Source: Promethearchaeota archaeon
GTDB lineage: Archaea; Asgardarchaeota; Lokiarchaeia; Sigyniarchaeales; Promethearchaeaceae
Direction: 5' to 3'
DNA length: 32,000 nucleotides
NCBI GenBank assembly: GCA_016933055.1
Contig: JAFGBS010000014.1
Span: 180,001 to 212,000 of the forward strand
Shown: positions 647 through 19,248 of the stretch, in pieces
Layout of the letters: each line of letters opens with the position of its first letter
Numbering within the stretch: the stretch's first letter is position 1
Position numbers and translations under genes: made by a program
Notes under the pieces: model-generated
Database searches by the model: none
Seen by the model: only the letters and a program-made list of their open reading frames with translations
Told to the model about the DNA's origin: nothing

Positions 647-3600
647 ATGGTATCAAACAAATCAGTATTATTACTCCGATTGCTTTTTTATATCTTTTTT
701 CTGGGTTTTGCTCTAGCTCAGCTATTTTTTTATGGTATTTTAATGATGATCCCAATGGATCTGATGTTTTTTGCTGAAGAAAATGCGAATGTGTGGGGAT
801 TTTTAGTACCATTTTGCATTGGATCGTTTTCTTTGTATGTTCTTCATATAACAAAAACGAAATCAAACCCAAAATTCACTGAATATTTTCGAAAATTCTC
901 AGTAGGAGTGGGTTTACTGCTGAATATCATTTTTAGTGGAGTTTTATTGCTGATATTTATCCGATTTGCCAAATATAATCATGAACCATGGCTAATTCAA
1001 GGTGGCTGGTTCATGAGATCTCATGGAATTATTTGGAGTTTCCTTCTGGGAGCTCTTGTTTTCACTGGTATTCAAGTAATAGATGAATTAATGCTACTCA
1101 AGCAGCTTTTTGATTCAGATTTATCTCTAAAAATTGGTAAAGCAAAATGGAATTTCACTATAGGCTCTCTTGTAGCCTTATTTACCTTTCTATTCACATT
1201 AGTGTTTTCTGGCTTCCTATTGCTATTTTATCGAGTTTACACCTTATATGGTGCGTTCTTGTTCACCTTTATTATATTAATAGGATTTTCGATAATATAT
1301 ATTGGAACGAAAGGAATTCAATTCCCATTTTATTATAAGATTGCGCAAATTAAGCGTTCAGAACCTAGTACAACTCCGTTAAATACTTCAGAAAGAAAGA
1401 AAAATGTAGGGAAATCAGCTTTATTCCTTTTCATCTCTTCAATTTCTCTAATCATAATGATATTATATTTCTTCGATATCAAATTCCTCTTCCCTTATCC
1501 TCCAGGTGTAAATGCAAACCGTTTTATTTTTCCGATTCAGCAACCTCTAACAATAGTGTTAGGTGTATTTGTGGGAATCGTTGTGATTGGGGGATTTTCA
1601 CGTTTTATCCTACAAAACTCAGTGTTTGGTAAAATTGAACTTACATCTAATAGACAAGCTAACCGAATCATTCGCGCTTTATTCGGTATTGGGATTTTTA
1701 CTGCAGTGACATTCATAATCATAATTTTTGGATTATCTCTGTATATTTTCGAGTTTACTCTTTATCTTCCCCAAGTTATTAGTTACACATTTATATGGGC
1801 GGCACTCGGTGTTATTGTTTTTCTTATAAGTGAGAAACTAGTTCTTAAGTCCAGGTTACGCCAGACCTTATCATTCACTATGATTATTATTGCATTCCTA
1901 TTGATCATTACAAATTTCTGGAAATTAGCTTTGGATTTGAGTGAAAACAATCAGAGTTTTAAAAGTGGAGCTTTTGACATATATTTTCCGTTTGAATTTC
2001 TCTTCAGTAATAAAAACATAATCATGATTGGGCTATCTATGGGATTTCTATTGAGTTTTTTGATGAAAACACTGATAAAAGGATTAAAAACCACAGAAAT
2101 GTCAAAATATAAAAATTCCACATCGATTTTATTCTTTTTCTTAGCACCTGTGGCGATAGGGTGCTTGGTAGGCTTCAGTTCATTGATAATTGATCTTCCT
2201 GGAGGGAATCCCACATTAGCAATGTACAGTTCTGACTTAATCCTTCCTATTATTCGAATAGGCATCATCATCGTTTTGGTCCTCCTATTAGTTCGGTTCA
2301 ATCTGGTAGCAGATCTTGAAGATAAGAAAGAAATTCTGAAAAAACAAAAAGCACCATCTCCACACATAAAGGATGTGTTCACAAATATTACGGAATCTAC
2401 CTCGAGAAATAAAATAAAAGCTACCATGCTAATTAGTATATTTCTTGTGAGTATGGTGTCAGGTGGATTGGGGGTTATTATAGGTATAACCGCCCTAAAT
2501 TCTCGATCCATGCCTTTATTGAAATCTACTTATGGGTATGACCTATGGGTAGCAAATTCCTCTGAACGTTTCAATCATCAAACCAAAATTGCCGTATCTG
2601 CTTCACCACAGATTGACCAAGTTACTTTTAACCTAGCAAAAAATGAGTATTATGCTTTCCAATTAGGATTAACTCTAAAATCAAAAGATCTATACTTCCA
2701 TTCCTACTATTTAACCGATTTCGTGGGAGTTGAGAATAGTTTAGAAGTAATCTCATCCGATTTTGCTCAATTACGATATGAAGATTATATTTTAGAAGAG
2801 GAATTTCCTGATAGACTTCTTCCTATAGAGGGAAATCCAATTCTGTTGAATAAAAGACAAACCCACATGTTTTGGTTTGATATTCGTACTCCTTATAATA
2901 TAACAGCTGGTAATTATGCAGGAATTCTCAAAATTACCTTTAAATTAGGAGACCGATATCTTGAAGAGAACATTCCCATTCGTTTTAATGTATGGGATTT
3001 TGCAATACCTTTTCGAAAACATGTAACCACTAGTGTGGGGGATGAAAGTGTTTCATCCGATGAGATATACAATCAAATGGTTGAAAGCTGGCATAAGCAT
3101 CGATTTAATATGTATGCCGAAGATATCAAAGGAACGGATGACTATCGTGTATTTGAAATTTATAATGGAGAACGCTATATCTATTACTTAAACAAGACAG
3201 ATGGATCCGTTACATTCAATTGGACACTTTGGGATCAGAAAATCGAGGCTCTCTTAAATGTTACAAATGCTCCGATGAATGGAATTCGAGTAGATTATAG
3301 CCTGGGGAGAAGTCTAAAAATTGGCAATGAAACGGAAAATCAATGGTTTCTCAATTGGTTAATCGAAGTAGAACAACATTTAGAATTGAGAGGATGGTTA
3401 AATATCTGCTATTATTACTTTGTAGATGAATTTACCTTATTTATCCCCGAAGAATATGAAAACCGAACCGCTTATTATGAAGCGGTAGAAGCACAACTCG
3501 CATCCATGAGATCTGTAGCACAAAAAATACGGATATTAGTAATTGCGCCCCCTCTTCCCGAATTGGAATCCATTAAGCCTTACATTAACATCTATGTACC

Positions 3601-4201
3601 CTTGAGTTACGATCGAAATGTAGAACAATGGGAACAAACGAAAAATAGGGATAAAAAGGAGATGTGGTTCTATACTTGTATTGGACCTTTCGCACCCTAT
3701 CCCAACGTCCACCTTTACAATCGACTCTTCGAAACACGTATACAAATGTGGAATACTTGGGCATGGGATATGGATGGATACCTCTTTTGGAGAGCAAATA
3801 GTTTTAATCACGGACAATATGGATTTGGGTATAATTCATGGGGGGATGGATGGTTCATTTACATAGATGAAGCGGAAAATCGAATATATGAGTCCATCAG
3901 ATGGGAGAATCTCGGGGATGGACAAGAAGACTATGAAATGTTCTGGTTATTAAATGCTACTCTTAATGAAATAGAAGAAAATGAGTTATTAGCACAAAGC
4001 GAGATAGATTTTTATCGGTCGGAACTCTATACAATAGTAAACACAGTTTCGGATGATTTTTTGGACTATACTAATAATCCTCATGATATCTATTGTGGTA
4101 TCGAGAGAATTGGACAAATTCTCCATTCCTTATCGCCAGTTATAGATATAAATGCAATTGGAGAAGCTCCTTGGTTTCCAATTTCAGGAGTAATCCCATA
4201 A
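647..4201 (+). CDS. Polytopic membrane protein (~15 TM segments) fused to a C-terminal DUF4091/GH123-like glycoside hydrolase domain
   Basis: Residues 1-~620 are a run of hydrophobic helices. The C-terminal half has YYFVDEF (DE pair), WFYTC, GYLFW, GDGWFIY and SIRWENLGDGQEDYE, which resemble DUF4091-family motifs. It also carries several N-x-S/T sequons. Confidence 0.75.
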   Translation: MVSNKSVLLLRLLFYIFFLGFALAQLFFYGILMMIPMDLMFFAEENANVWGFLVPFCIGSFSLYVLHITKTKSNPKFTEYFRKFSVGVGLLLNIIFSGVLLLIFIRFAKYNHEPWLIQGGWFMRSHGIIWSFLLGALVFTGIQVIDELMLLKQLFDSDLSLKIGKAKWNFTIGSLVALFTFLFTLVFSGFLLLFYRVYTLYGAFLFTFIILIGFSIIYIGTKGIQFPFYYKIAQIKRSEPSTTPLNTSERKKNVGKSALFLFISSISLIIMILYFFDIKFLFPYPPGVNANRFIFPIQQPLTIVLGVFVGIVVIGGFSRFILQNSVFGKIELTSNRQANRIIRALFGIGIFTAVTFIIIIFGLSLYIFEFTLYLPQVISYTFIWAALGVIVFLISEKLVLKSRLRQTLSFTMIIIAFLLIITNFWKLALDLSENNQSFKSGAFDIYFPFEFLFSNKNIIMIGLSMGFLLSFLMKTLIKGLKTTEMSKYKNSTSILFFFLAPVAIGCLVGFSSLIIDLPGGNPTLAMYSSDLILPIIRIGIIIVLVLLLVRFNLVADLEDKKEILKKQKAPSPHIKDVFTNITESTSRNKIKATMLISIFLVSMVSGGLGVIIGITALNSRSMPLLKSTYGYDLWVANSSERFNHQTKIAVSASPQIDQVTFNLAKNEYYAFQLGLTLKSKDLYFHSYYLTDFVGVENSLEVISSDFAQLRYEDYILEEEFPDRLLPIEGNPILLNKRQTHMFWFDIRTPYNITAGNYAGILKITFKLGDRYLEENIPIRFNVWDFAIPFRKHVTTSVGDESVSSDEIYNQMVESWHKHRFNMYAEDIKGTDDYRVFEIYNGERYIYYLNKTDGSVTFNWTLWDQKIEALLNVTNAPMNGIRVDYSLGRSLKIGNETENQWFLNWLIEVEQHLELRGWLNICYYYFVDEFTLFIPEEYENRTAYYEAVEAQLASMRSVAQKIRILVIAPPLPELESIKPYINIYVPLSYDRNVEQWEQTKNRDKKEMWFYTCIGPFAPYPNVHLYNRLFETRIQMWNTWAWDMDGYLFWRANSFNHGQYGFGYNSWGDGWFIYIDEAENRIYESIRWENLGDGQEDYEMFWLLNATLNEIEENELLAQSEIDFYRSELYTIVNTVSDDFLDYTNNPHDIYCGIERIGQILHSLSPVIDINAIGEAPWFPISGVIP

Positions 4202-4264
4202 ACAGCTGATACTAAAAAAATCCCGATCAAGGAACTATTAAACTACATCGTATTACCTTCTTGT

Positions 4265-6832
4265 ATGTCTAATAATTTTCAAATTATTGAAGGATTTGCG
4301 AGTACAGACGCCAAACCTCATTATCCTCCTAACTTGCAATTAGAACCCATACATCAGGCTATTAAGCTGACCTTTAATTTAGAAAAGAAAATTGCATGGG
4401 GATCTGTGACCACTACGATACGTGCAAATTCTGATAATGCAACAACAATAAAATTTGATGCCATCGATTTCACGATCAAATCTGTACAAGGAGCGGATTC
4501 CTATTCTTATGATGGCGAAAAAGTCACCATGACATGGAATACTGCTTGGAAGAGAGGGCAAATTCAAGAAATAGTTATTCAGTATTCAATTGAAGAACCC
4601 CTATCTGGATTGTATTTTTCTTATCCCGATGATAAATATCCTAACCGAATAGCTTATGTAGTAACGGATCACGAAACAGAACGTGCACGCTATCATATTC
4701 CATGCATAGATCATCCCGCGATTCGCTGTTCTATTGATTTTTATCTGACTGCAAATGAGAAATATACAATTCTTGCAAATGGAAGGTTAATCGAAGAAGG
4801 TAAGAATGGCGACGGAACTAAAACAGCCCATTGGAAGCAAAAATTCCCTTGCCCTTCCTATTTGATTACTTATGCAATTGGAGAGTTCGTAAATTTCACC
4901 GATAGTGTGGTAGATGCAGGTAAAGGGTCCATTCCCATTGCTTATTTTACGACTAATGACTTCACATCTGAAGCCCTTAAGCGTACCTTTGATAGAACTC
5001 CCGAAATGCTTGAGTGGATGACGAAGAAATTTAAATGCCCCCTCGAATGGGATAAATACTACCAAATTATTACTCCTCATTATGCTGGTGCCATGGAAAA
5101 TATCTCAATGGTAACTTGGGGATCCTTTGCACTGTTACATACCGAGGATGTTGCGAAGGAGTTATGGTGGAGAATAGATGCTATTAATGTCCACGAGATG
5201 TCACATTCGTGGTTTGGAGATATGATTGTTATTAGAGAGTTTACCCACGGATGGCTTAAGGAGTCTTGGGCTGTATACACCGAAAGTTGCTATTATGAAG
5301 ATACGAGAGACGAGGATGAATGGAAATATAATATGTATAATAATTCACTTAGATACAGAGAAGAATCTGACTCAAAATATGCCAGACCAATTGTTAATAA
5401 GACATATGATAGCAGTTGGGATATGTATGACCGTCACTTGTATCCAGGTGGTGCATGGAGGATTCATATGCTTCGGCACTTGATAAAAAACCATGTAAGT
5501 GATGAGTGCTTCTGGGAGGCTGTATCAGATTATTTGAACACCTATAAAGGGAAAGTAGTTGAAACTATAGATTTTCAGCGAAAACTAGAAGAACACTCCG
5601 GATTAAGTCTTCAATCGTTTTTTGATCAATGGTTATATTCTCCCGGTTATCCAAAACTGAAAGTTAAATTTAACTTTGACGAGAAATCTCACTTAGCATC
5701 TCTTAAACTTGACCAAACACAAATTGATGAGAAAAAAAACATTGGTGTATTTCAGTTTCCCCTGGAAATTATGTGGGAAACAGAGAATGGATCGTTTGAA
5801 CGGGAAAAATTCATTATTTCTGAAAAAGTGCAAACCTTGTATTTCAAATGTGTTAAAAAACCCAAGCAGATACGTATAGATCCTGATTATGTACTATTAT
5901 GCTCGTTAGAATTCAATCCAGGTACAGACATGCTAAAACAGCAATTGAAAACGGGTGATAGTATTGCGAAAATCCAAGCAGCAAAGGAATTAACAAAAAC
6001 GGGAAAGAAAAAAGACTTGGAAACCGTATTTCATGCGTATCGGGATGAAAAATACTGGGGGACTAAAGTGGAGCTAGCGAAATTATTGAAAGAGTCTCCC
6101 TCTTTATACGGAATGCGTCTTCTTAGGGATTTATTAGAAGACGAATCGGATCCATTAGTGCTGACTTCCTTGATTCATAATTTTGCAAATGTCAGGGAAT
6201 TCTTTGTATTTGATGCAATGAAGAACTATTTAAAACGACCTGTACACTATCCCTATGCTACAGCCACTGCTTTAGAAGTAATTGGCACTATGCGAACGGA
6301 TGAAGCGTATAAATTTTTAAACACCTATTCCCCACCTAAGGATCCTAAAAATATCGTTAAATCGGGCTTATATCGAGCAATAGGGAGTATTCGTACTGAG
6401 CAAGCTCTCGAATATCTGGTAAAGAAGATCCCATACGGTGAAGACGCAGAAAATTGTCGTTCAAGTATAGCTTCTGCTCTTATTTCCTCTCTGAGTTGGA
6501 TGAAGGAATCCGTAAGGAATCGGTATCTGGAAAAACTAACGGATATCATCCCCGGAGAGACTAACGAATTATTCTTGCATAATTTAGCTCGAATTATAAG
6601 CACCGTTAAGGATCCCTTGGTAATTACTGCGTTGAAAACGATTAAACGAAAACTAGCGAAACAAGATAAACCAGAGATCGATCGATTAATCCAAAAAGTA
6701 CAGAAAAGCTTAAGTACGGAAGAAGAAATTCGAAATCTAAAATCAGAAATAGATTCTGTTAAGAAATCATTGAAGAATTTGAAAGAAGTGGTAGAAAAAA
6801 TCGAAGCGAGAACAGCACCGGAAAAAAAATAA
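4265..6832 (+). CDS. M1-family zinc aminopeptidase (PepN-like) with C-terminal HEAT-like repeats and a terminal coiled coil
   Basis: GAMEN motif, HEMSH-x18-E zinc motif and catalytic Tyr in LYPGGAW. The C-terminal third is helical-repeat-like. Confidence 0.92.
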   Translation: MSNNFQIIEGFASTDAKPHYPPNLQLEPIHQAIKLTFNLEKKIAWGSVTTTIRANSDNATTIKFDAIDFTIKSVQGADSYSYDGEKVTMTWNTAWKRGQIQEIVIQYSIEEPLSGLYFSYPDDKYPNRIAYVVTDHETERARYHIPCIDHPAIRCSIDFYLTANEKYTILANGRLIEEGKNGDGTKTAHWKQKFPCPSYLITYAIGEFVNFTDSVVDAGKGSIPIAYFTTNDFTSEALKRTFDRTPEMLEWMTKKFKCPLEWDKYYQIITPHYAGAMENISMVTWGSFALLHTEDVAKELWWRIDAINVHEMSHSWFGDMIVIREFTHGWLKESWAVYTESCYYEDTRDEDEWKYNMYNNSLRYREESDSKYARPIVNKTYDSSWDMYDRHLYPGGAWRIHMLRHLIKNHVSDECFWEAVSDYLNTYKGKVVETIDFQRKLEEHSGLSLQSFFDQWLYSPGYPKLKVKFNFDEKSHLASLKLDQTQIDEKKNIGVFQFPLEIMWETENGSFEREKFIISEKVQTLYFKCVKKPKQIRIDPDYVLLCSLEFNPGTDMLKQQLKTGDSIAKIQAAKELTKTGKKKDLETVFHAYRDEKYWGTKVELAKLLKESPSLYGMRLLRDLLEDESDPLVLTSLIHNFANVREFFVFDAMKNYLKRPVHYPYATATALEVIGTMRTDEAYKFLNTYSPPKDPKNIVKSGLYRAIGSIRTEQALEYLVKKIPYGEDAENCRSSIASALISSLSWMKESVRNRYLEKLTDIIPGETNELFLHNLARIISTVKDPLVITALKTIKRKLAKQDKPEIDRLIQKVQKSLSTEEEIRNLKSEIDSVKKSLKNLKEVVEKIEARTAPEKK

Positions 6833-6915: not shown

Positions 6916-7518
6916 CTATTTTTTTACTAAATGAATGGTAACTATTCCGTGGTTTTCAGTTATTTTTATTTTTTTCTTGGGTTCAAAATTCAAACTTATT
7001 TTTCTCTTGTATTTGATAGTATCGTGTTCGGCGATAATGATCACTTCTTTTCCATCAATATCAACAGTTAAATCCTTTTCTGCTACACCAGGCATTTCAA
7101 GTACAAGTTCAACAGAACCGTTGTCTTCCACAACATCCATTATTGGAACCTTATATTCTGCATCAGAAGGTTTTTCTCCTTCTCCCAAGCCTAGGGTCAA
7201 CGGTTTTTTCTCACTTAAATCAATCAAATGACCGCCAAAGCGTTTCTGAATCCCACTTAGGAATCGGTCTACATCTTGTTCGGTTGCATCTCCAGATACG
7301 CGAATTTCAGGTTCTTTCATTCCAGTTTGATACTTATAAGAGATGGAATAGGATTTAGTTTTTCCATCATCACTGAATTTCGACCTAGGAGAGCGGAACT
7401 CAAAGATTTCATCGACGTCTTGAAACATATCATCGAATTCATCCCCAAAAAACGACCATTCCTTGAACATTTTTTTGATATTTTTATTCATATAATCGAA
7501 AATGTCTTCGTCAGGCAT
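6916..7518 (-). CDS. hsp20: Small heat-shock protein (Hsp20/alpha-crystallin family, archaeal type)
   Basis: Phe/Asp-rich N-terminal arm, then an alpha-crystallin core PIMDVVEDNGSVELVLEMPGVAEKDLTV...NHGIVTIHL. An SD-like GAGGTGA lies upstream of the ATG. Confidence 0.92.
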   Translation of the reverse strand: MPDEDIFDYMNKNIKKMFKEWSFFGDEFDDMFQDVDEIFEFRSPRSKFSDDGKTKSYSISYKYQTGMKEPEIRVSGDATEQDVDRFLSGIQKRFGGHLIDLSEKKPLTLGLGEGEKPSDAEYKVPIMDVVEDNGSVELVLEMPGVAEKDLTVDIDGKEVIIIAEHDTIKYKRKISLNFEPKKKIKITENHGIVTIHLVKK

Positions 7519-7601: not shown

Positions 7602-9380
7602 TTACATACTAGGACGCATATGCTGAGGAGGAGGTCTTAAACAGAAGCCACATTTACCAAAAGAGATTATGGTCTGATTCCAGCAGTGTTCATGATATAA
7701 GCGTTCGCAACTTGGGCACTGAGTTTGACACTGATCATGAGAGTCACCAGTACTGGATGAGATCTTCAACCCACATTCGGGACAATCTATTTTATGGCAG
7801 ATAACACAACTAAGTATGGATTCAGCGAAGATTGTCTGAGATATCTGATTGAAAAGATCAATTAAGTAGTTAAAAGGATGCCATTGCTGGGTAAAGGACT
7901 GAATTTGATTGTTGATTTTTTCTTTTATTTCTTCATACTCTTCCAATGCTGATAGAAGCTTGAAGTGAGGAACTGTTATTGGATATTCATCATTCATTTG
8001 GACCTCGAATGTGAATGCCAGATCTTTAGTTTTTAGTTGACCAGATATTTCAATTGAAAATTTGTCGGTAGTTTTATCATAATCAACCTTTTTTACTCCC
8101 CCTTTCAGTAGATCTACTTCAAAACTTATGCGAGATGCCTTGTCAACCAACCAAGAAATCTCTCGTAACACATCCACAACGTGGCTCTCTTTTCTCTTCC
8201 AATTTTTTAATACCATCAGATCTTGAGGGGAAAAAGGAAGGACTTCTTGCAATGCTGATGAAAACTGAACTAAAGGCTCGTTAGGATATTTTGAAATATC
8301 TAATGTAAGAATATATTCTTTAAATCCGTATGTAAATAAACCTACTTGAAGATGGGAAATTAAACCATCTACCATTTCTGTCTTGTATTCCCCAAAGATC
8401 ATTTTAGCCTCCTGTTCAATGTCACTCAAAAACCAAAGTTTTCCCTCAACCTCCCGAATTAATTCCACAACATGACGGGGATTGTTCTCATCCCATGACT
8501 TCAAGATTCCAATAGATTCGTCAACATCCCCAAGGATCTTTCTTAAATTATCTTGAACCACCACTTCTGGCTTCTTTGGAAACGAAGAAAAGTCAATACG
8601 AATGATAAAAGTCTGTTCGAGAGTAATCGTAAGATACACTTCCACAACTCCCATAGTATTTCCAACATAATCAATAGCGTATTCTTGCTGAATTAGCGCG
8701 GCTTCGGTTGATACTTTTACATCCAGTTCGGCATCTAAATTTTGTGCTTCGATGGACGGATATATAGGTCGTTCGGTGGGGGTGAGTGCGGGTACATTGT
8801 AAGGATCTGCTGAGGGATCCAAAGTTGGGTAAATGGATTCATTCTCTGGTACCTCTTCTTCGGAATTCCATTCTAAAATTTCATCGGGATTGATATATTC
8901 CTCTTGTTCATATAGATATTGACTCATATCGGGAGTGAGATATTGTTCCTCTTCATCCTTTTCTTGTTTATACGATTGTGATGACAATTCTTCCGTACTG
9001 AATTCTGCATAGGTAGGTTGGACAGATGGTTCCTCAGTAGATATATATATTTCCTTCTCCTCTTCTTGCTGTTCAACATAATTTTTAATTAGTACCGCTA
9101 ATTCTCGTACTGCTGTGACTACATGACTTTCAGGAGTCCAATTATTCAATGCATTAAGTTCAATTTCCTCCGGAACATTGGGAATTGGGAGGGGAAATAT
9201 AAAATCTGGTGGGTAAGTAGGAAAATCTTTGGTATATTTTATCTCTAAAGGATATTTTGTTTCCTTATTGGGGGATTCATAAATGTATCCATATAAATGT
9301 CGGAGATTTCCTTTAACCATATAAAACTTGAATTCGGAAGCAATTAATTGTGCTTCATGGAGTAATTTTCCATTTTCCAT
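7602..9380 (-). CDS. Tandem UEV/RWD (inactive E2-fold, 4 copies) protein with a C-terminal C4HC3 RING-variant zinc finger; putative E3 ubiquitin ligase
   Basis: Four ~100-aa units each carry [FY]PxxP-type motifs (FPTYPP, FPKKP, YPNEP, YPITVP) and W...VV..I/VRE-like endings. The C-terminus is CPEC-x18-CPSC-x4-H-x2-C-x10-CGFC. The ATG at 9380 is preferred over the TTG at 9458 given in the ORF track. Confidence 0.78.
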   Translation of the reverse strand: MENGKLLHEAQLIASEFKFYMVKGNLRHLYGYIYESPNKETKYPLEIKYTKDFPTYPPDFIFPLPIPNVPEEIELNALNNWTPESHVVTAVRELAVLIKNYVEQQEEEKEIYISTEEPSVQPTYAEFSTEELSSQSYKQEKDEEEQYLTPDMSQYLYEQEEYINPDEILEWNSEEEVPENESIYPTLDPSADPYNVPALTPTERPIYPSIEAQNLDAELDVKVSTEAALIQQEYAIDYVGNTMGVVEVYLTITLEQTFIIRIDFSSFPKKPEVVVQDNLRKILGDVDESIGILKSWDENNPRHVVELIREVEGKLWFLSDIEQEAKMIFGEYKTEMVDGLISHLQVGLFTYGFKEYILTLDISKYPNEPLVQFSSALQEVLPFSPQDLMVLKNWKRKESHVVDVLREISWLVDKASRISFEVDLLKGGVKKVDYDKTTDKFSIEISGQLKTKDLAFTFEVQMNDEYPITVPHFKLLSALEEYEEIKEKINNQIQSFTQQWHPFNYLIDLFNQISQTIFAESILSCVICHKIDCPECGLKISSSTGDSHDQCQTQCPSCERLYHEHCWNQTIISFGKCGFCLRPPPQHMRPSM

Positions 9381-9493
9381 TTTGAATACCCGAGTTTTTG
9401 AATAATAAAGGCTTAAATAGTGCTTTATATCTTGTCCAACAACAAAAAGTGAAGACAATAACTATAAAATACCGATATGTCTATAAACTGTAC

Positions 9494-9523: not shown

Positions 9524-9733
9524 TTATTCTTCGAATTTGAAGGATAGGTTCACGCGCGCTCGGTACATAACAATTTCATTATTCAAAATCTTCGCATCAA
9601 GTTTAATTACTTCTGCAATACGTAGATCCCGCAATGTTTTTGCTGCTGTCTCAACTGCATTATGAATTGCATCTTCAAAACTTGTTTCAGAGGAGCCCAC
9701 TAATTCAATAAACTTATACACAGATTCTGCCAT
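9524..9733 (-). CDS. Dodecin (flavin-binding storage protein)
   Basis: 69 aa with the typical VYKFIELVGSSETSFEDAIHNAVETAAKTLRDLR...YRARVNLSFK pattern. Confidence 0.93.
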   Translation of the reverse strand: MAESVYKFIELVGSSETSFEDAIHNAVETAAKTLRDLRIAEVIKLDAKILNNEIVMYRARVNLSFKFEE

Positions 9734-9999
9734 AGTTTTTCACTTTAATTGTTTATGATATTAAAAATCGGATATGTTTTCCGACGAAAATAATTACCCA
9801 AAAGGCATTATTAAATTCTTCGGCTACATAAAAAAAGGAAGATGAGAAATCGATGCTTTTTCATTCATATAAACCTCAGAGATTTGTACAAAATGAAGAT
9901 AAATTAGCATTCTCTTTCACAAAATTAAAATGAGATACTTAATGTCTTTTTCTTGACTGAAGTGCAATTTCAGTCGATCAATGTTTGTTGTGAAAAAAA

Positions 10000-12900
10000 A
10001 TGCGAGATTTAGGAAAACTCGATTCCCTCCAGTTGGAAGAGAGAATACTCAAGTGGTGGGAATGCGAAAACATATATGAATTAATTAAGCAAAATGAACC
10101 CGAAAAACGCGTTTGGCGTTTTATAGATGGTCCTCCCTACACAAGTGGGGATGTGCATCTTGGAACTGCTTGGAACAAAATAATGAAAGACTTATTGATA
10201 CGTTACAAGCGAATGCGGGGCTATAAGGTACTGGACACCCCCGGATATGATACACACGGGCTCCCAATTGAAGTCGTAATGGAAAAGAAGCTCAATATTC
10301 ACAACAAACAAGAGATTATCGATTACGGCTTAGATAAATTTATTGAAGAATGTCGTAAATATGCAAAAAGCATGATTCCCATAATGAATGAACAATTCAA
10401 GAGATTGGGTTGCTCATTTTGGGATTGGGAACACCCCTATGTCACCTATGAAAATACATACTTACAAGGTGCATGGTGGACATTAAAAAAGGCACATGAA
10501 AATGGATATTTATATAAATTCTATAAACCTCAGAATTGCTGCCCCAGATGCGCCACAGCATTAGCGAAGCATGAATTTGAATATGCAAATATAAAAGATA
10601 CAGCCATTTTCGTAAAGTTCCAGACCATTGAGGACCCCAAAACCTTTTTTGTGATTTGGACAACAACTCCGTGGACTCTTGTTGCTAACACCAATATTAT
10701 GGTCAACCCCGATATTGAATACGTGGAGATGCGTGTAAAGGATGAAACGTGGATAATGGGGATAGCTGCTACCACAAATTTGCTGCAAAACAAGATGGGA
10801 TTACCTTTAAACAAAGATGAGGGATTTTCCTACGGTAGGAGATTCAATGGTAGAGAATTGGAAGGAAAACGCTATATCCATCCTCTTGGGGATGAAGTTC
10901 CAATGCAAGCGGAACTTGAGAAGAAACAGCCCAAAGTACATACCGTGGTTCTCAGTTCGGAATTTGTATCGGAAGGGGAGGGTTCGGGTCTTGTGCATAC
11001 CGCCCCCGGTCACGGACCTGAAGATTTTGAAGTAGGTGTCAGAAACGAAATTCCCATTTTTAATCCTGTAGATCTCTCCGGAAATTATACTGAGGAAGGA
11101 GGATATTTCGAGGGGAAAAATGTTGCGGACACGAATGAAGAAATTATCGATATCTTACATAAGAAAGGTACTTTGCTTCATCAAGAGGAAATCGTACACG
11201 AATATGCTCATTGTTGGAGATGCAAAACAAAATTAGTGTACCGTGCTACCGAACAGTGGTTTCTTTCTTCCTCTGCGATTAAAGATCGAATGATCGAACT
11301 GAACCAAGATGTTTATTGGATCCCCGACCAAGCAGGACATTTACAGTTTGAGTCATGGTTGCAAAATCTTCAAGATTGGTGTATATCTCGACAGAGATAT
11401 TGGGGAATTCCTATACCGATCTGGGAATGTACAAATGAAAATTGCGACCATCTAGAAGTAATTGGTACTGCAGAGGAGTTGGAACAAAAAGCAGGTAAGA
11501 TCCCGGAAGATTTGCATAAACCTTGGATCGACGAAGTCGAGCTTCGATGCGATAAATGTGAAGGTGTCATGAAACGAATTTCCGATGTTCTGGACGTATG
11601 GTTTGATTCGGGATCGGTGATGTGGGCAGCTCAAAAATTCTATGACGGGTACATTCATTACGATACATGGGAAAAAGCTGATTTTATCATAGAGGGAAAG
11701 GATCAAATACGCGGCTGGTTTAACTCATTACTTGGGTGCGCGGTATTAACTTCTGACCGCCGTAGTTATGATGCTTGCTATATGCACGGATGGGTTTTAT
11801 CCCATGGTATTAAGATGTCTAAATCTCTCGGAAATAAAGTGGAACCGAGAGATGTGATCGAGGGAAAAGTAGAGATCCTTACAGAGCGGCAAAAAGAGCT
11901 GCTTCGTGAAGAAGCCCGAGAAATAGAAGCTTCCAAATTTGAAAAAACAAAAAAAAATTTAACTAAGACACGAATTTCTAAGAGAAAAAAGAAATATATC
12001 AAAGATGATAAACGCTGGTCAGATATCAAGGGAATTGAAACATTTAGGTTTTATTGTGTGACTGCAGCTGCGCCAGGTGCTGATTTCAGCTTCAACTATA
12101 AAGAATATGTGGATTCATATAAAGTGTTGAATACATTATGGAATTCATATGTATTCGCTCAGGAAAAAATGAGTTTAAACGAGTTCGATCCCCTCAAACA
12201 CAAATTCAAATGGGAGGATTTAACCCTCGAAGATAAATGGATAATTTCCAAAACGAATGTAGTAATAAAGGAATTATCTCAGATCTTAGATTCCTATGAG
12301 CTTCCGAAATTTCCACAAAGGTTACAAGATTTTATCCTAAATGATGTATCTAGATGGTATATCACCTTAATACGAGAAAAAGTTGAACCCCGTAGTGAGG
12401 ATCCCCTTAAAATTCAGACCCTTGCTGTATTATGGTATGTATTACATCGACTTTTACTGGTATTATCCCCTTTAAATCCGATGATTACAGAAGAAATTTA
12501 TCAAAAAATGTTTGTAGATCATTTAAAAAATCCGAAGAAATCAGTACATCTCGAGAAATGGCCAAGAATTCAAACTAAGCGAATTAATTCGGAAATTGAA
12601 GAACAGATGGAACTTAGTCGTCAAATTATAGAGGCAGTTCGTTCATTGAAAGCTGATAATAAAATTAAATTACGTTGGCCTACCAAAGGTTTGATTATTG
12701 TTCCAAAAAAGAATATTCCAGATTTACAATTGATGGAGTTGATACAGAATATGGCTAATGTGAAAACTGTACGAATAGCCAAAGAGACTCCCGAAGGCAA
12801 GAATTACACATCTGTAGACCATGTTATAGGAAAATTGATTTTAGATCTTAATGACACTGTAGAATTGCAACGTGAACGTATTTTAAGGGATTTACTTCGC

Positions 12901-13251
12901 ACATTACAACATTTACGAAAAATAAATGATCTAAAAACTGGTGAACCAATTCAAGTCATCCTAGCTACGAAATCCGATTTCGCATTTGATACATTACAGC
13001 AAAATGAACCGGAAATTCGATCGAAGATCTCTGCGGAATCTTTTACTATTGAAAGAGAAATTCACTCGGAAGAAAACGGATGGATACATCACCAATTTTA
13101 TTTCTGTTTGAATAAGGGATGTTATGCAAGTATCCGGAAAAAGCACATCGATAAAATACGCGAGGGAAAGGACTATAGTTGTGATTATTGTGAAAAACTA
13201 GTGACTGAAGAAAATCTTGGAGAGATTGACATAAGATTTAAAAAATTATGA
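10000..13251 (+). CDS. ileS: Isoleucine--tRNA ligase (archaeal/eukaryotic type II)
   Basis: DGPPY..G.VHLGTAWNK (HIGH), GYDTHGLPIE, editing-domain WTTTPWTL and GLVHTAPGHG, DWCISRQRYWGIPIP, and KMSKS. Confidence 0.97.
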   Translation: MRDLGKLDSLQLEERILKWWECENIYELIKQNEPEKRVWRFIDGPPYTSGDVHLGTAWNKIMKDLLIRYKRMRGYKVLDTPGYDTHGLPIEVVMEKKLNIHNKQEIIDYGLDKFIEECRKYAKSMIPIMNEQFKRLGCSFWDWEHPYVTYENTYLQGAWWTLKKAHENGYLYKFYKPQNCCPRCATALAKHEFEYANIKDTAIFVKFQTIEDPKTFFVIWTTTPWTLVANTNIMVNPDIEYVEMRVKDETWIMGIAATTNLLQNKMGLPLNKDEGFSYGRRFNGRELEGKRYIHPLGDEVPMQAELEKKQPKVHTVVLSSEFVSEGEGSGLVHTAPGHGPEDFEVGVRNEIPIFNPVDLSGNYTEEGGYFEGKNVADTNEEIIDILHKKGTLLHQEEIVHEYAHCWRCKTKLVYRATEQWFLSSSAIKDRMIELNQDVYWIPDQAGHLQFESWLQNLQDWCISRQRYWGIPIPIWECTNENCDHLEVIGTAEELEQKAGKIPEDLHKPWIDEVELRCDKCEGVMKRISDVLDVWFDSGSVMWAAQKFYDGYIHYDTWEKADFIIEGKDQIRGWFNSLLGCAVLTSDRRSYDACYMHGWVLSHGIKMSKSLGNKVEPRDVIEGKVEILTERQKELLREEAREIEASKFEKTKKNLTKTRISKRKKKYIKDDKRWSDIKGIETFRFYCVTAAAPGADFSFNYKEYVDSYKVLNTLWNSYVFAQEKMSLNEFDPLKHKFKWEDLTLEDKWIISKTNVVIKELSQILDSYELPKFPQRLQDFILNDVSRWYITLIREKVEPRSEDPLKIQTLAVLWYVLHRLLLVLSPLNPMITEEIYQKMFVDHLKNPKKSVHLEKWPRIQTKRINSEIEEQMELSRQIIEAVRSLKADNKIKLRWPTKGLIIVPKKNIPDLQLMELIQNMANVKTVRIAKETPEGKNYTSVDHVIGKLILDLNDTVELQRERILRDLLRTLQHLRKINDLKTGEPIQVILATKSDFAFDTLQQNEPEIRSKISAESFTIEREIHSEENGWIHHQFYFCLNKGCYASIRKKHIDKIREGKDYSCDYCEKLVTEENLGEIDIRFKKL

Positions 13252-17331: not shown

Positions 17332-19248
17332 ATGATTGCACAACGGTATCGAACCCATTTGAAAAAAGTTTGTCCCGCGATAAATCAATGTATAGCTACA
17401 GCTAAGACTACTGATTCATTGTTTATAGTTACTGGAGATATCGAACACAATGTAACCGTTTATAATGAGCAGCTTGAACAGATTCAACAAATCCCTTTTA
17501 AAGGTTGGATCCGATGCTGTGATGCATACGATATTGATCACAATGGAAATCATGAAATTGCTATAGGTTCCGGAGATAATTCTGTACGTGTATTTCGCTA
17601 TGAAGAAGAAATCGGATATTCTGAATTGTGGAGGTATGATTTTAACAATAAAGTCACCACCATTACGATAGGGGATATTAATTATGATGGACGCGCGGAA
17701 GTTATCGCAGGTGGATGGGATAATTCTCTCAAAGTTTTTGATGGGTTGACCGGAGTTCTTCTTTGGGAATTGACTTTCGACGATTGGGTTACCCTTGCAA
17801 AAGTTTTGGATGTAAACCATGATGGATTACCAGAAGTTGTTGTAGGCTTAAAGAAAGGACAATTTGGAGTAATCAATGGAATCACTGGAGAATGTTTATG
17901 GGATCATTTATTCCAAAAAAGGATCAACGCATGTGATTTAGTTCATCTAGCCAACAATCCTTACCCTCACCTGCTTGCCGGAGGAGATGAAAACATATTA
18001 TATATTTTCGATTTTGAGGGTAATTTGGTGAATAAATTGGAAACTCCAGATCGAATCTTGTGTATTTCTCACGGTGATATCAATAAGGACAACTACAATG
18101 AAGTACTTCTAACATTAGCAGACAAACGATTATATGTGTATGAAAGTGAAGAAACCGGATTACCAGAAAACACTTCCTTAAAAATCCGATGGAGAGCTAC
18201 ATTAGATAACGTGGGTATGGGGTTAGTCATGTCCGATCAATTTAAAGATAATATTCCTCGAATAATTGTTACGGGATATTCCAAGGATGTTCGTATTCTT
18301 GAGGATTTTTTTTATGGAGCTGATTCTCAGAGAATACAAATCGAAGATTCGAACTATATCCCCCCAAAATTATCGAATCATGAGAAAAAAATGCGAGATT
18401 TAATGGGAACGGATGTAGATTTAGAATTTTTTAACGAGCCGAATGCTTTTTTTTTTCCAAAAAAAATTGAAACTTTGAATCAGCTTATTCCCTCACAATT
18501 TGAATCGAAATCGGAAAGCTTCACCTTCATGAATCTAAAGGAGATATATGAGAATAAGTATCTTCTGGAACGTCAAATCGAACAAATAAGGAATGAAAAT
18601 TTAGGAAAAGCAAAACCATTAGTTACATTTCCATCCCGCATTTGTAATTTGAACGAAATTCATGACTATAGCAACAAAATCGAGGTTCACACAAGTGTGA
18701 TGAAATCGGTTTCACAAAAGTCCGAAAGCATACCTACAGTGGAGTCATATAACGAAACCGATACTTCTCTCAAGATAAAATTCATTGAGATATTAAATTC
18801 AACGGAAATCATCAGTTCTAAAGCAAAAATGCAAGACCTTATGGAAGAGAATGGATTTACTGAAGAACAATTCGAAAGAATCTTCACGATATTAAAAGAT
18901 GAAGAAGGTATACTGACGTATAGTCGTTCAACTCCTCGTGGATATAGCATCTCAGTACAAGAAGCTCCTGCCGAAATTACTGAATCTTCCGTTACGATTA
19001 AAATTGAAGAAAGAAAGACTGTTTCAATTGATATTGAACCGAAAGATAGAGGTTTGGGTCTTCCTAATGAAGCTTTTTTCGACTTGATTAAAGAAAATCA
19101 GCCCGTCAGTTCAAAAGATAGACTTCTGGAACTTGCTGAATCTATTAATATTGACAAAAAAACTGCAGAACAATTAATTGAGCAATTTAAAGAACTTGGT
19201 GTAATAGAATACTCAAGAAGCACACCGCGTGGATGGTCTACTATTTAG
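17332..19248 (+). CDS. FG-GAP-repeat beta-propeller protein with two C-terminal winged-helix-like modules and no signal peptide
   Basis: Repeated DxNxDGxxE(I/V) loops (DIDHNGNHEI, DINYDGRAEV, DVNHDGLPEV, DINKDNYNEV) in residues ~1-330. The C-terminal duplication ends in YSRSTPRGY and YSRSTPRGW. Confidence 0.75.
   Translation: MIAQRYRTHLKKVCPAINQCIATAKTTDSLFIVTGDIEHNVTVYNEQLEQIQQIPFKGWIRCCDAYDIDHNGNHEIAIGSGDNSVRVFRYEEEIGYSELWRYDFNNKVTTITIGDINYDGRAEVIAGGWDNSLKVFDGLTGVLLWELTFDDWVTLAKVLDVNHDGLPEVVVGLKKGQFGVINGITGECLWDHLFQKRINACDLVHLANNPYPHLLAGGDENILYIFDFEGNLVNKLETPDRILCISHGDINKDNYNEVLLTLADKRLYVYESEETGLPENTSLKIRWRATLDNVGMGLVMSDQFKDNIPRIIVTGYSKDVRILEDFFYGADSQRIQIEDSNYIPPKLSNHEKKMRDLMGTDVDLEFFNEPNAFFFPKKIETLNQLIPSQFESKSESFTFMNLKEIYENKYLLERQIEQIRNENLGKAKPLVTFPSRICNLNEIHDYSNKIEVHTSVMKSVSQKSESIPTVESYNETDTSLKIKFIEILNSTEIISSKAKMQDLMEENGFTEEQFERIFTILKDEEGILTYSRSTPRGYSISVQEAPAEITESSVTIKIEERKTVSIDIEPKDRGLGLPNEAFFDLIKENQPVSSKDRLLELAESINIDKKTAEQLIEQFKELGVIEYSRSTPRGWSTI

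Follow-up and report, generated by a model that had tools for sequence, protein, structure and literature searches.

A candidate RING-type ubiquitin ligase with a FANCL-like domain order in an Asgard archaeon

In a 32,000-nucleotide stretch of the genome of a Promethearchaeota archaeon (contig JAFGBS010000014.1, positions 180,001 to 212,000; hereafter, the window), the gene at 7602-9380 on the minus strand encodes a 592-residue protein, P0001, which we read, with a probability of about 0.65, as a ubiquitin E3 ligase of the RING type that belongs to the Asgard ubiquitin system and follows a FANCL-like plan. From its N- to its C-terminus, the protein consists of a Cys-less E2-like domain, a disordered acidic linker, three UBC/RWD-like domains and a Cys/His module. 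This entire layout is kept in more than 100 Asgard homologues, which rules out a chance origin of the pattern; those homologues that carry names are from Promethearchaeota/Lokiarchaeota and from a small number of further Asgard bins. The open reading frame extends over 7602-9458 (618 codons from a TTG), and the ATG at 9380 is taken as the real start because 53 homologues align from its Met. The gene keeps the borders given in an earlier, unaided reading of the DNA (the sequence-only reading) and comprises 592 codons plus a stop. The source genome (3.76 Mb, 91% complete, about 36% GC) holds no second copy or short paralogue of P0001. A PDB search with the single P0001 sequence returned nothing significant, and family profiles were needed.

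Judging from profiles and predicted structures, all four units preceding the Cys/His module are pseudo-E2 domains, so called because they have UBC/RWD folds in which no Cys is conserved. AlphaFold2 (AF2), run with the family alignment, gave a full-length model with a predicted local distance difference test (pLDDT) score of 76 and a model of residues 216-592 with a pLDDT of 88.4 and a predicted template modelling score of 0.66; each unit is modelled as a helix/four-strand/helix domain with pLDDT of about 85-95. Unit 1 (9054-9380, residues 1-109; pLDDT 84-93 in the full-length model) retains the E2 core motifs and matches Pfam UQ_con at 29.1 bits (cut-off, 27). Unit 2 (8433-8735, residues 216-316), whose UBC-like fold rests on hhalign and AF2 (helix, four strands, helix; pLDDT 86-95), occupies the position of the FANCL ELF domain, and no Pfam family detects its fold when it is searched alone. 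Unit 3 (8136-8432, residues 317-415) is a UBC/UEV-like fold and unit 4 (7821-8135, residues 416-520) an RWD/E2-like fold; they form the first and second lobes of a double-RWD-like pair connected by a long helix (residues 401-428). Unit 4, when cut out, matches Pfam RWD at 24.2 bits against a cut-off of 22.8, and both the UQ_con and the RWD matches recur in 54 of 54 homologues. The unit borders drawn in the sequence-only reading agree with the AF2 domains (1-109, 216-314, 317-415 and 416-520), and the two landmarks that it had assigned to every unit are invariant throughout: a Pro turn (P54/P58, P268/P271, P366/P369 and P467/P471) and a late Trp (W81, W296, W394 and W500). In unit 4, the turn is Y466-P467-x3-P471, the YPxxxP signature of RWD domains.

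The units are related to one another and to E2 enzymes by several measures. Profile-profile comparison with hhalign linked unit 1 to unit 2 with 97.7% probability, unit 1 to unit 3 with 97.2% and unit 2 to unit 3 with 98.6%; for the links of units 1 and 4 to the two canonical E2s encoded in this genome, the better E2 gave 72-89% in each case. In VIA, a structure search that is independent of Foldseek and covers 48,161 PDB representatives, the best 50 matches listed for the model of residues 216-592 were all UBC-superfamily proteins. Unit 4 matched an E2 with Z 11.6 (root-mean-square deviation [rmsd] 2.5 Å over 103 residues) and the RWD domain of RWDD1 with Z 11.3; UBE2E1 (Z 11.3) and the GCN2 RWD (Z 10.9) were also recovered. 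Unit 3 matched the UEV-like domain of VPS37A (Z 10.7) and the Vps23 UEV (Z 9.4), and the double RWD of Knl1 was matched by units 3 and 4 together, with 177 residues aligned at Z 10.4, such that the E2/RWD fold proposed for the units is what the models return. A domain resembling unit 2 (query residues 196-316) also stands alone in many proteins of 250-735 residues that lack Pfam annotation (P0171, P0182, P0185 and others).

In unit 1, both the catalytic Cys and the HPN motif are lost. The unit 1 family profile aligns with Rad6 (E 1.5e-4), its segment geiqLekLknWt falling on GEICLDILQNrWTP, and this places E74 (codon 9159-9161) on the E2 catalytic Cys. Among the 54 homologues, that column holds Gln in 31, Glu in 13 and Cys in none, and the aligned homologues share no conserved Cys anywhere in units 1-4, in line with the missing HPN/Cys active site that had been claimed for each unit.

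Unit 1 is separated from the rest of the protein by an acidic, Pro-rich linker of about 106 residues (8736-9053, residues 110-215), the length of which varies from 67 to 190 residues among homologues. In the AF2 model, residues 107-215 are disordered (pLDDT 28-51), and these 109 residues include 24 Glu, 12 Pro, 11 Ser and 10 Tyr. Within this otherwise variable region lies a conserved linear motif, EEY[IL]TPD[L]xxYPPD (8907-8948, residues 145-158), in which P150 is invariant and conservation reaches 90% or more at T149, D151, Y155 and P156; a weaker second copy occurs at residues 161-165. The motif may be a docking site for a UEV-like unit or a partner. An N-terminal UEV followed by a Pro-rich linker recalls Tsg101, and P0001 could on these grounds be imagined as an ESCRT-I-type (Vps23/Tsg101-like) cargo adaptor that selects cargo for sorting by its ubiquitin or by P(S/T)xP-like peptides; the TPD/YPP motif and the matches of unit 3 to the VPS37A and Vps23 UEVs (Z 9.4-10.7) would fit such a role. 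We consider this highly improbable: P0001 has a C-terminal RING in place of the coiled-coil stalk and steadiness box, no ESCRT genes lie near it or at the homologous loci examined, and the main text of a comprehensive survey of Asgard ESCRT systems describes no such architecture (PMC10936438).

The C-terminal module (7605-7820, residues 521-592) is, from its sequence, a predicted RING with a C4HC3 core and an Rbx1-style inserted third zinc. The core ligands are C525/C528, C555/C558, H563/C566 and C577/C580, and all eight are present in the 50 relatives examined, save for one that has Thr at 555; the inserted site is predicted to comprise C533, C536, C551 and H565. Counting H529, 13 Cys and His positions of the module are conserved (C525, C528, H529, C533, C536, C551, C555, C558, H563, H565, C566, C577 and C580). 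The zinc sites are read from covariation and from alignment to RBX1 rather than from distances in the model, and the third zinc is assigned because the insert ligands vary together and align to the corresponding RBX1 site. The distant paralogues P0151, P0160 and P0164 lack the segment holding C533, C536 and C551, retain C525/C528, and so have a plain RING of the form C-x2-C-x12-C-x2-C-x4-H-x2-C-x10-C-x2-C; in P0007, an orthologue that is 64% identical to P0001, all three insert Cys are gone together with H565. Position 565 is accordingly His or Cys in 41 of the 46 insert-bearing sequences and a non-ligand in all four insert-less ones (P0151, P0160, P0164 and P0007). The five insert-bearing exceptions carry S565; they are closely similar sequences, all of which have H529. 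HMMER aligned C525/C528, C533/C536, C551, H563, H565 and C566 with C42/C45, C53/C56, C68, H80, H82 and C83 of RBX1, in which C53, C56, C68 and H82 form the third zinc site. The pattern given in the sequence-only reading, which ran from C533-x2-C536-x18-C555 to C580, is literally present but omits C525, C528, C551 and H565. Because C525/C528 were left out, it was misregistered, the insert pair being mistaken for the first RING pair; the two-zinc finger that it implied gives way to three predicted zincs with C525/C528 as the first pair, and the spacing, which had been likened to that of Listerin, is nearer to that of RBX1.

Since a C4HC3 ligand pattern is also the signature of PHD fingers, the module might instead be a treble-clef reader of the PHD or another non-RING kind, with a peptide, lipid or nucleic acid as its ligand and no role in ubiquitin transfer. 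The PDB matches of the family profile include the RING ligases RCHY1 (5.8e-6), RNF4 and Arkadia (1.2e-5 each), RBX1 (4.9e-5), APC11 (2.8e-4) and, within the same range (E 6e-6 to 3e-4), RBX2; the DPF3 PHD is a weak match at 1.4e-3, at least 100-fold weaker than RCHY1, RNF4 and Arkadia. Pfam matches among the fingers of 34 relatives include PHD in 5, RH_dom in 18 and C1 in 6, alongside Prok-RING_1 in 22 (best E 3.6e-8), zf-rbx1 in 16 and zf-RING_2 in 10; the finger of P0001 itself has no match to Prok-RING_1 at E <=1. Together with the ligand-for-ligand correspondence between the three-zinc layout and RBX1, and with the paralogues inside ubiquitin operons described below, these scores leave a PHD-like reader with very little credence. 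Beside the zinc ligands, V526, I527 and W567 are invariant. In known RING-E2 interfaces, positions like these hold the hydrophobic residues that contact the E2, and by analogy the three residues would sit at E2-contact positions. A complex prediction for the RING (residues 515-592) with three Zn and the operon E2 P0260 scored 0.00 and gave no verdict, and we count it neither for nor against binding. The same three-zinc RING, 44-48% identical, ends the otherwise unrelated Asgard proteins P0172, P0174, P0178 and P0181, which carry leucine-rich repeats or a right-handed beta-helix (NosD); these sequences suggest a modular RING protein family with varied target-binding parts.

In structure, P0001 most closely resembles FANCL among named proteins. 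FANCL is the E3 of the Fanconi anaemia core complex, a protein of about 375 residues consisting of an ELF domain, a double RWD and a C4HC3 RING. In Foldseek searches of the PDB, human FANCL (7kzp_L) was the top match of the full-length model (E 2.6e-9), and the model of residues 216-592 matched FANCL at 3.2e-11, BRE at 3.4e-6 and LTN1 at about 1e-4. Against AFDB Swiss-Prot, query residues 225-584 aligned with residues 4-366 of mouse and human FANCL (E 4e-10 and 3e-9), followed by BRE/BRCC45 (6e-8), CENP-O, Med14 and listerin. A search of 2.3 million AFDB fold clusters gave three entries with generic names or none (24-44% identity) as the closest, followed by several FANCL clusters (1e-9 to 1e-7). 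VIA aligned 310 residues with FANCL 2-370 (Z 9.4, rmsd 26.7 Å), the longest alignment among its best 50 matches and the only one spanning residues 9 to 376. By Z, FANCL ranks only 23rd because domain orientations differ, and single E2/RWD domains dominate the rigid-body matches. The C-terminal tail of P0001, F-G-K-C-x2-C, may resemble that of FANCL, as the sequence-only reading suggested.

The prominence of BRE/BRCC45 in these searches raises a different reading, in which P0001 would be a non-catalytic ubiquitin-binding scaffold: its tandem UEV-like domains would bind ubiquitin, or act as the organiser of a JAB/MPN deubiquitinase complex, with the zinc module being structural or serving assembly. 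BRE is the second-best full-length match by Foldseek and AFDB Swiss-Prot (E-values above) and reaches Z 8.3 over 278 residues in VIA; Pfam BRE matches 14 of 54 homologues (best E 9e-7), and JAB proteases share operons with paralogues of P0001. FANCL, however, outscores BRE by four to five orders of magnitude in Foldseek. BRE, moreover, has no RING, whereas the eight cross-brace ligands here are kept (with the one Thr555 exception), the hydrophobic residues at the presumed E2-contact positions are invariant, and the zinc module matches active RING ligases by sequence. We therefore judge a BRE-like scaffold unlikely.

The ubiquitin, E1 and E2 on which the sequence-only reading had made a ligase role depend are all encoded in the genome. 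A same-strand cluster on contig C16 encodes a ubiquitin-like protein (Ubl, 123 residues), an E1 (415 residues), an E2 with HPN and Cys (175 residues) and a JAB protease, and a second canonical E2 lies on contig C22. In this cluster (locus L021, G000:C16:90500-100500, positions 2460-6813), the JAB gene is followed by one for a 396-residue protein in which Pfam finds no RING; the Ubl begins with an acidic extension of about 50 residues and ends in STAGM, not GG. Two distant paralogues of P0001 are located within ubiquitin operons elsewhere: P0151 (351 residues, three units plus the plain RING; E 9e-26 to P0001) lies 55 nucleotides upstream of a ubiquitin-E1-E2-JAB-RING series, and E1-E2-JAB is immediately followed by P0142 (691 residues; E 4e-38), which has an additional RING at its N-terminus. 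Of the functional clues, the placement of these paralogues speaks most strongly for a role of the family in ubiquitylation.

Several results weigh against a FANCL-like ligase. The gene for P0001 lies outside the ubiquitin operon, with an HSP20-like gene, a dodecin gene and that of isoleucyl-tRNA synthetase (IleRS) as neighbours, and the genome encodes at least five other RING-like candidates, so P0001 need not be the main E3. The FANCL match has a TM score of 0.26 and an rmsd of about 26 Å; domain order is thus shared with FANCL, rigid geometry is not. A score summed over three repeated UBC folds and a RING could also result where common domains were put together independently. Against the Pfam models of the FANCL family (FANCL_d1, d2, d3 and FANCL_C), the matches found were all below threshold: FANCL_d1 in 7 of 54 homologues, with a best E of 1.3e-3, and FANCL_d2 in 3 of 54, with a best E of 7e-4. 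The relatives' RINGs matched 89 Pfam families, and the 25 commonest of these do not include FANCL_C, which might at most match one or two relatives. The FANCL_d1 and FANCL_d2 matches are confined to units 3-4, with none in unit 2; because FANCL_d1 does not fall on the unit at the ELF position, it lends no positional support.

The proposal that P0001 is a relative of FANCL/LTN1-type ligases is supported by its overall structure, in which FANCL scores best and BRE and listerin come after it; membership of the FANCL family is not supported by sequence. Because the sequence-level link is weak, we restrict the label to architecture: on the models and profiles compared here, P0001 is FANCL-like in architecture and is not a demonstrated FANCL family member. 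A further step would be to regard the Asgard family and its shorter operon paralogues (three units plus RING) as true FANCL homologues, relatives of the archaeal stock behind FANCL and perhaps also behind the double-RWD scaffolds, termed "atypical", that occur in kinetochores and Mediator; we hold this doubtful and offer it tentatively. If such homology were real, tandem pseudo-E2 arrays fused to a RING would predate eukaryotes.

As a ligase, P0001 might work as follows. The C-terminal three-zinc RING would recruit an E2 charged with ubiquitin and activate it; the likeliest partner is one of the two canonical E2s that the genome encodes. Units 2-4, i.e., the ELF-position unit and the double-RWD-like pair, would provide a rigid platform for a substrate or partner, as ELF and the double RWD do in FANCL. 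Unit 1, which with its Cys replaced cannot carry ubiquitin as a thioester, would swing on the flexible acidic tether of 67-190 residues and most likely bind ubiquitin non-covalently, like Mms2/Uev1 or the Tsg101 UEV; it would in this way capture already-ubiquitylated targets or position the acceptor ubiquitin.

Of 301 genomes sampled from the phylum, 65 have a match to a profile of residues 216-592. Full-length matches come mainly from a sister family within the same order, in which 52 of 69 genomes match, and from two further families of the class, both of which carry several paralogues; the remainder of the phylum yielded only partial, weak matches. RING ligases with an RWD or pseudo-E2 platform of their own (FANCL, listerin and RNF25) and the double-RWD scaffolds of kinetochores and Mediator have been regarded as products of eukaryotic evolution that go back to an archaeal E2. 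A complete FANCL-type domain order in Asgard archaea, with paralogues in Ub-E1-E2-JAB operons, would move the origin of multi-domain E3 scaffolds to before eukaryogenesis, and P0001 bears in this way on the source of the FANCL-type ligases of eukaryotes; it would also offer a simple, reconstitutable system for cooperation between pseudo-E2 domains and a RING. No description of the family was found in the searchable literature, which covers neither subscription journals nor supplementary tables, and P0001 probably represents an undescribed archaeal ubiquitin ligase. The only Asgard link in that literature is a single "RWD-like" sequence mentioned by Tromer et al. (2019; PMC6601020).

The immediate neighbourhood of the gene is not conserved as an operon. 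Downstream by 84 nucleotides and on the same strand is a gene for a 200-residue HSP20-like protein with a long N-terminal extension (6916-7518, minus strand), and at three homologous loci neither HSP20 nor dodecin is a conserved neighbour. Only IleRS and polysaccharide-synthesis genes recur beside homologues, which suggests synteny rather than function. At two homologous loci (L015 and L017), the P0001-type gene and IleRS share a strand and IleRS follows directly, whereas in the present DNA (9524-13251) the two are divergent with dodecin in between, an arrangement that points to a local inversion. At a further locus, L016, an apparent E2 located 3 kb downstream of the homologue was rejected, as it consists of unit 1 and the linker of this same family in truncated form. 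This protein, P0259 (L016:10740-11249, plus strand, 170 residues), is separated from the full-length homologue by AbiEii-type genes and may be left over from a duplication or insertion. Elsewhere in the window, an M1 aminopeptidase (4265-6832, plus strand) with an intact HExxH, HEAT repeats at its C-terminus and a match to the Ig-like domain of TAF2 at 27.3 bits (cut-off, 27) recalls eukaryotic TAF2 in its layout, and a 638-residue FG-GAP beta-propeller protein (17332-19248, plus strand) has the BBS7 propeller as its best Pfam match (E 1.7e-13).

Set beside known systems, P0001 shares with FANCL the order and number of domains over residues 216-592, three Cys-less UBC-like folds followed by a C-terminal RING with a conserved C4HC3 core, and differs in its additional N-terminal pseudo-E2 on a long acidic tether and in the predicted third zinc site inserted into its RING, that of FANCL not being known to bind more than two zincs. 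FANCL acts with UBE2T and within the Fanconi anaemia core complex on FANCD2/FANCI, partners that would not be expected in archaea. Listerin/Ltn1 likewise has an RWD leading directly into a RING (VIA Z 9.4 over 152 residues, model residues 200-370; Foldseek E about 1e-4), but places this single RWD after a HEAT solenoid of about 1,400 residues that P0001 lacks. RNF25 also has an RWD followed by a RING (VIA Z 9.9 for its RWD), with one RWD rather than an array. In the kinetochore proteins, the double RWD of Knl1 and that of CENP-O (TM by target 0.59-0.62) superpose on the pair formed by units 3 and 4, but Knl1 and CENP-O/P lack a RING and are not linked to the ubiquitin pathway. BRE/BRCC45 comes close in its tandem, Cys-less UBC-like domains, and yet belongs, as a subunit with two UEV domains and without a RING, to JAMM deubiquitinase complexes (BRISC and BRCA1-A), with BRCC36/Abraxas as its partners. 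The zinc module resembles that of RBX1, RBX2 and APC11, a cross-brace with a zinc site inserted between ligand pairs 1 and 2; P0001, however, lacks the cullin-binding N-terminal strand, has C-x2-C rather than C-x-H as its second pair, and carries the finger fused to UBC-like domains, whereas RING proteins of the RBX1 type are small subunits. Among archaea, the nearest counterparts are the RINGs tied to Ub-E1-E2-JAB cassettes, i.e., Prok-RING_1 (PF14446) and the small-RING E3 encoded by the Caldiarchaeum ubiquitin operon (PMC5654768), but these are short, single-domain RINGs, whereas that of P0001 ends a 592-residue pseudo-E2 array.

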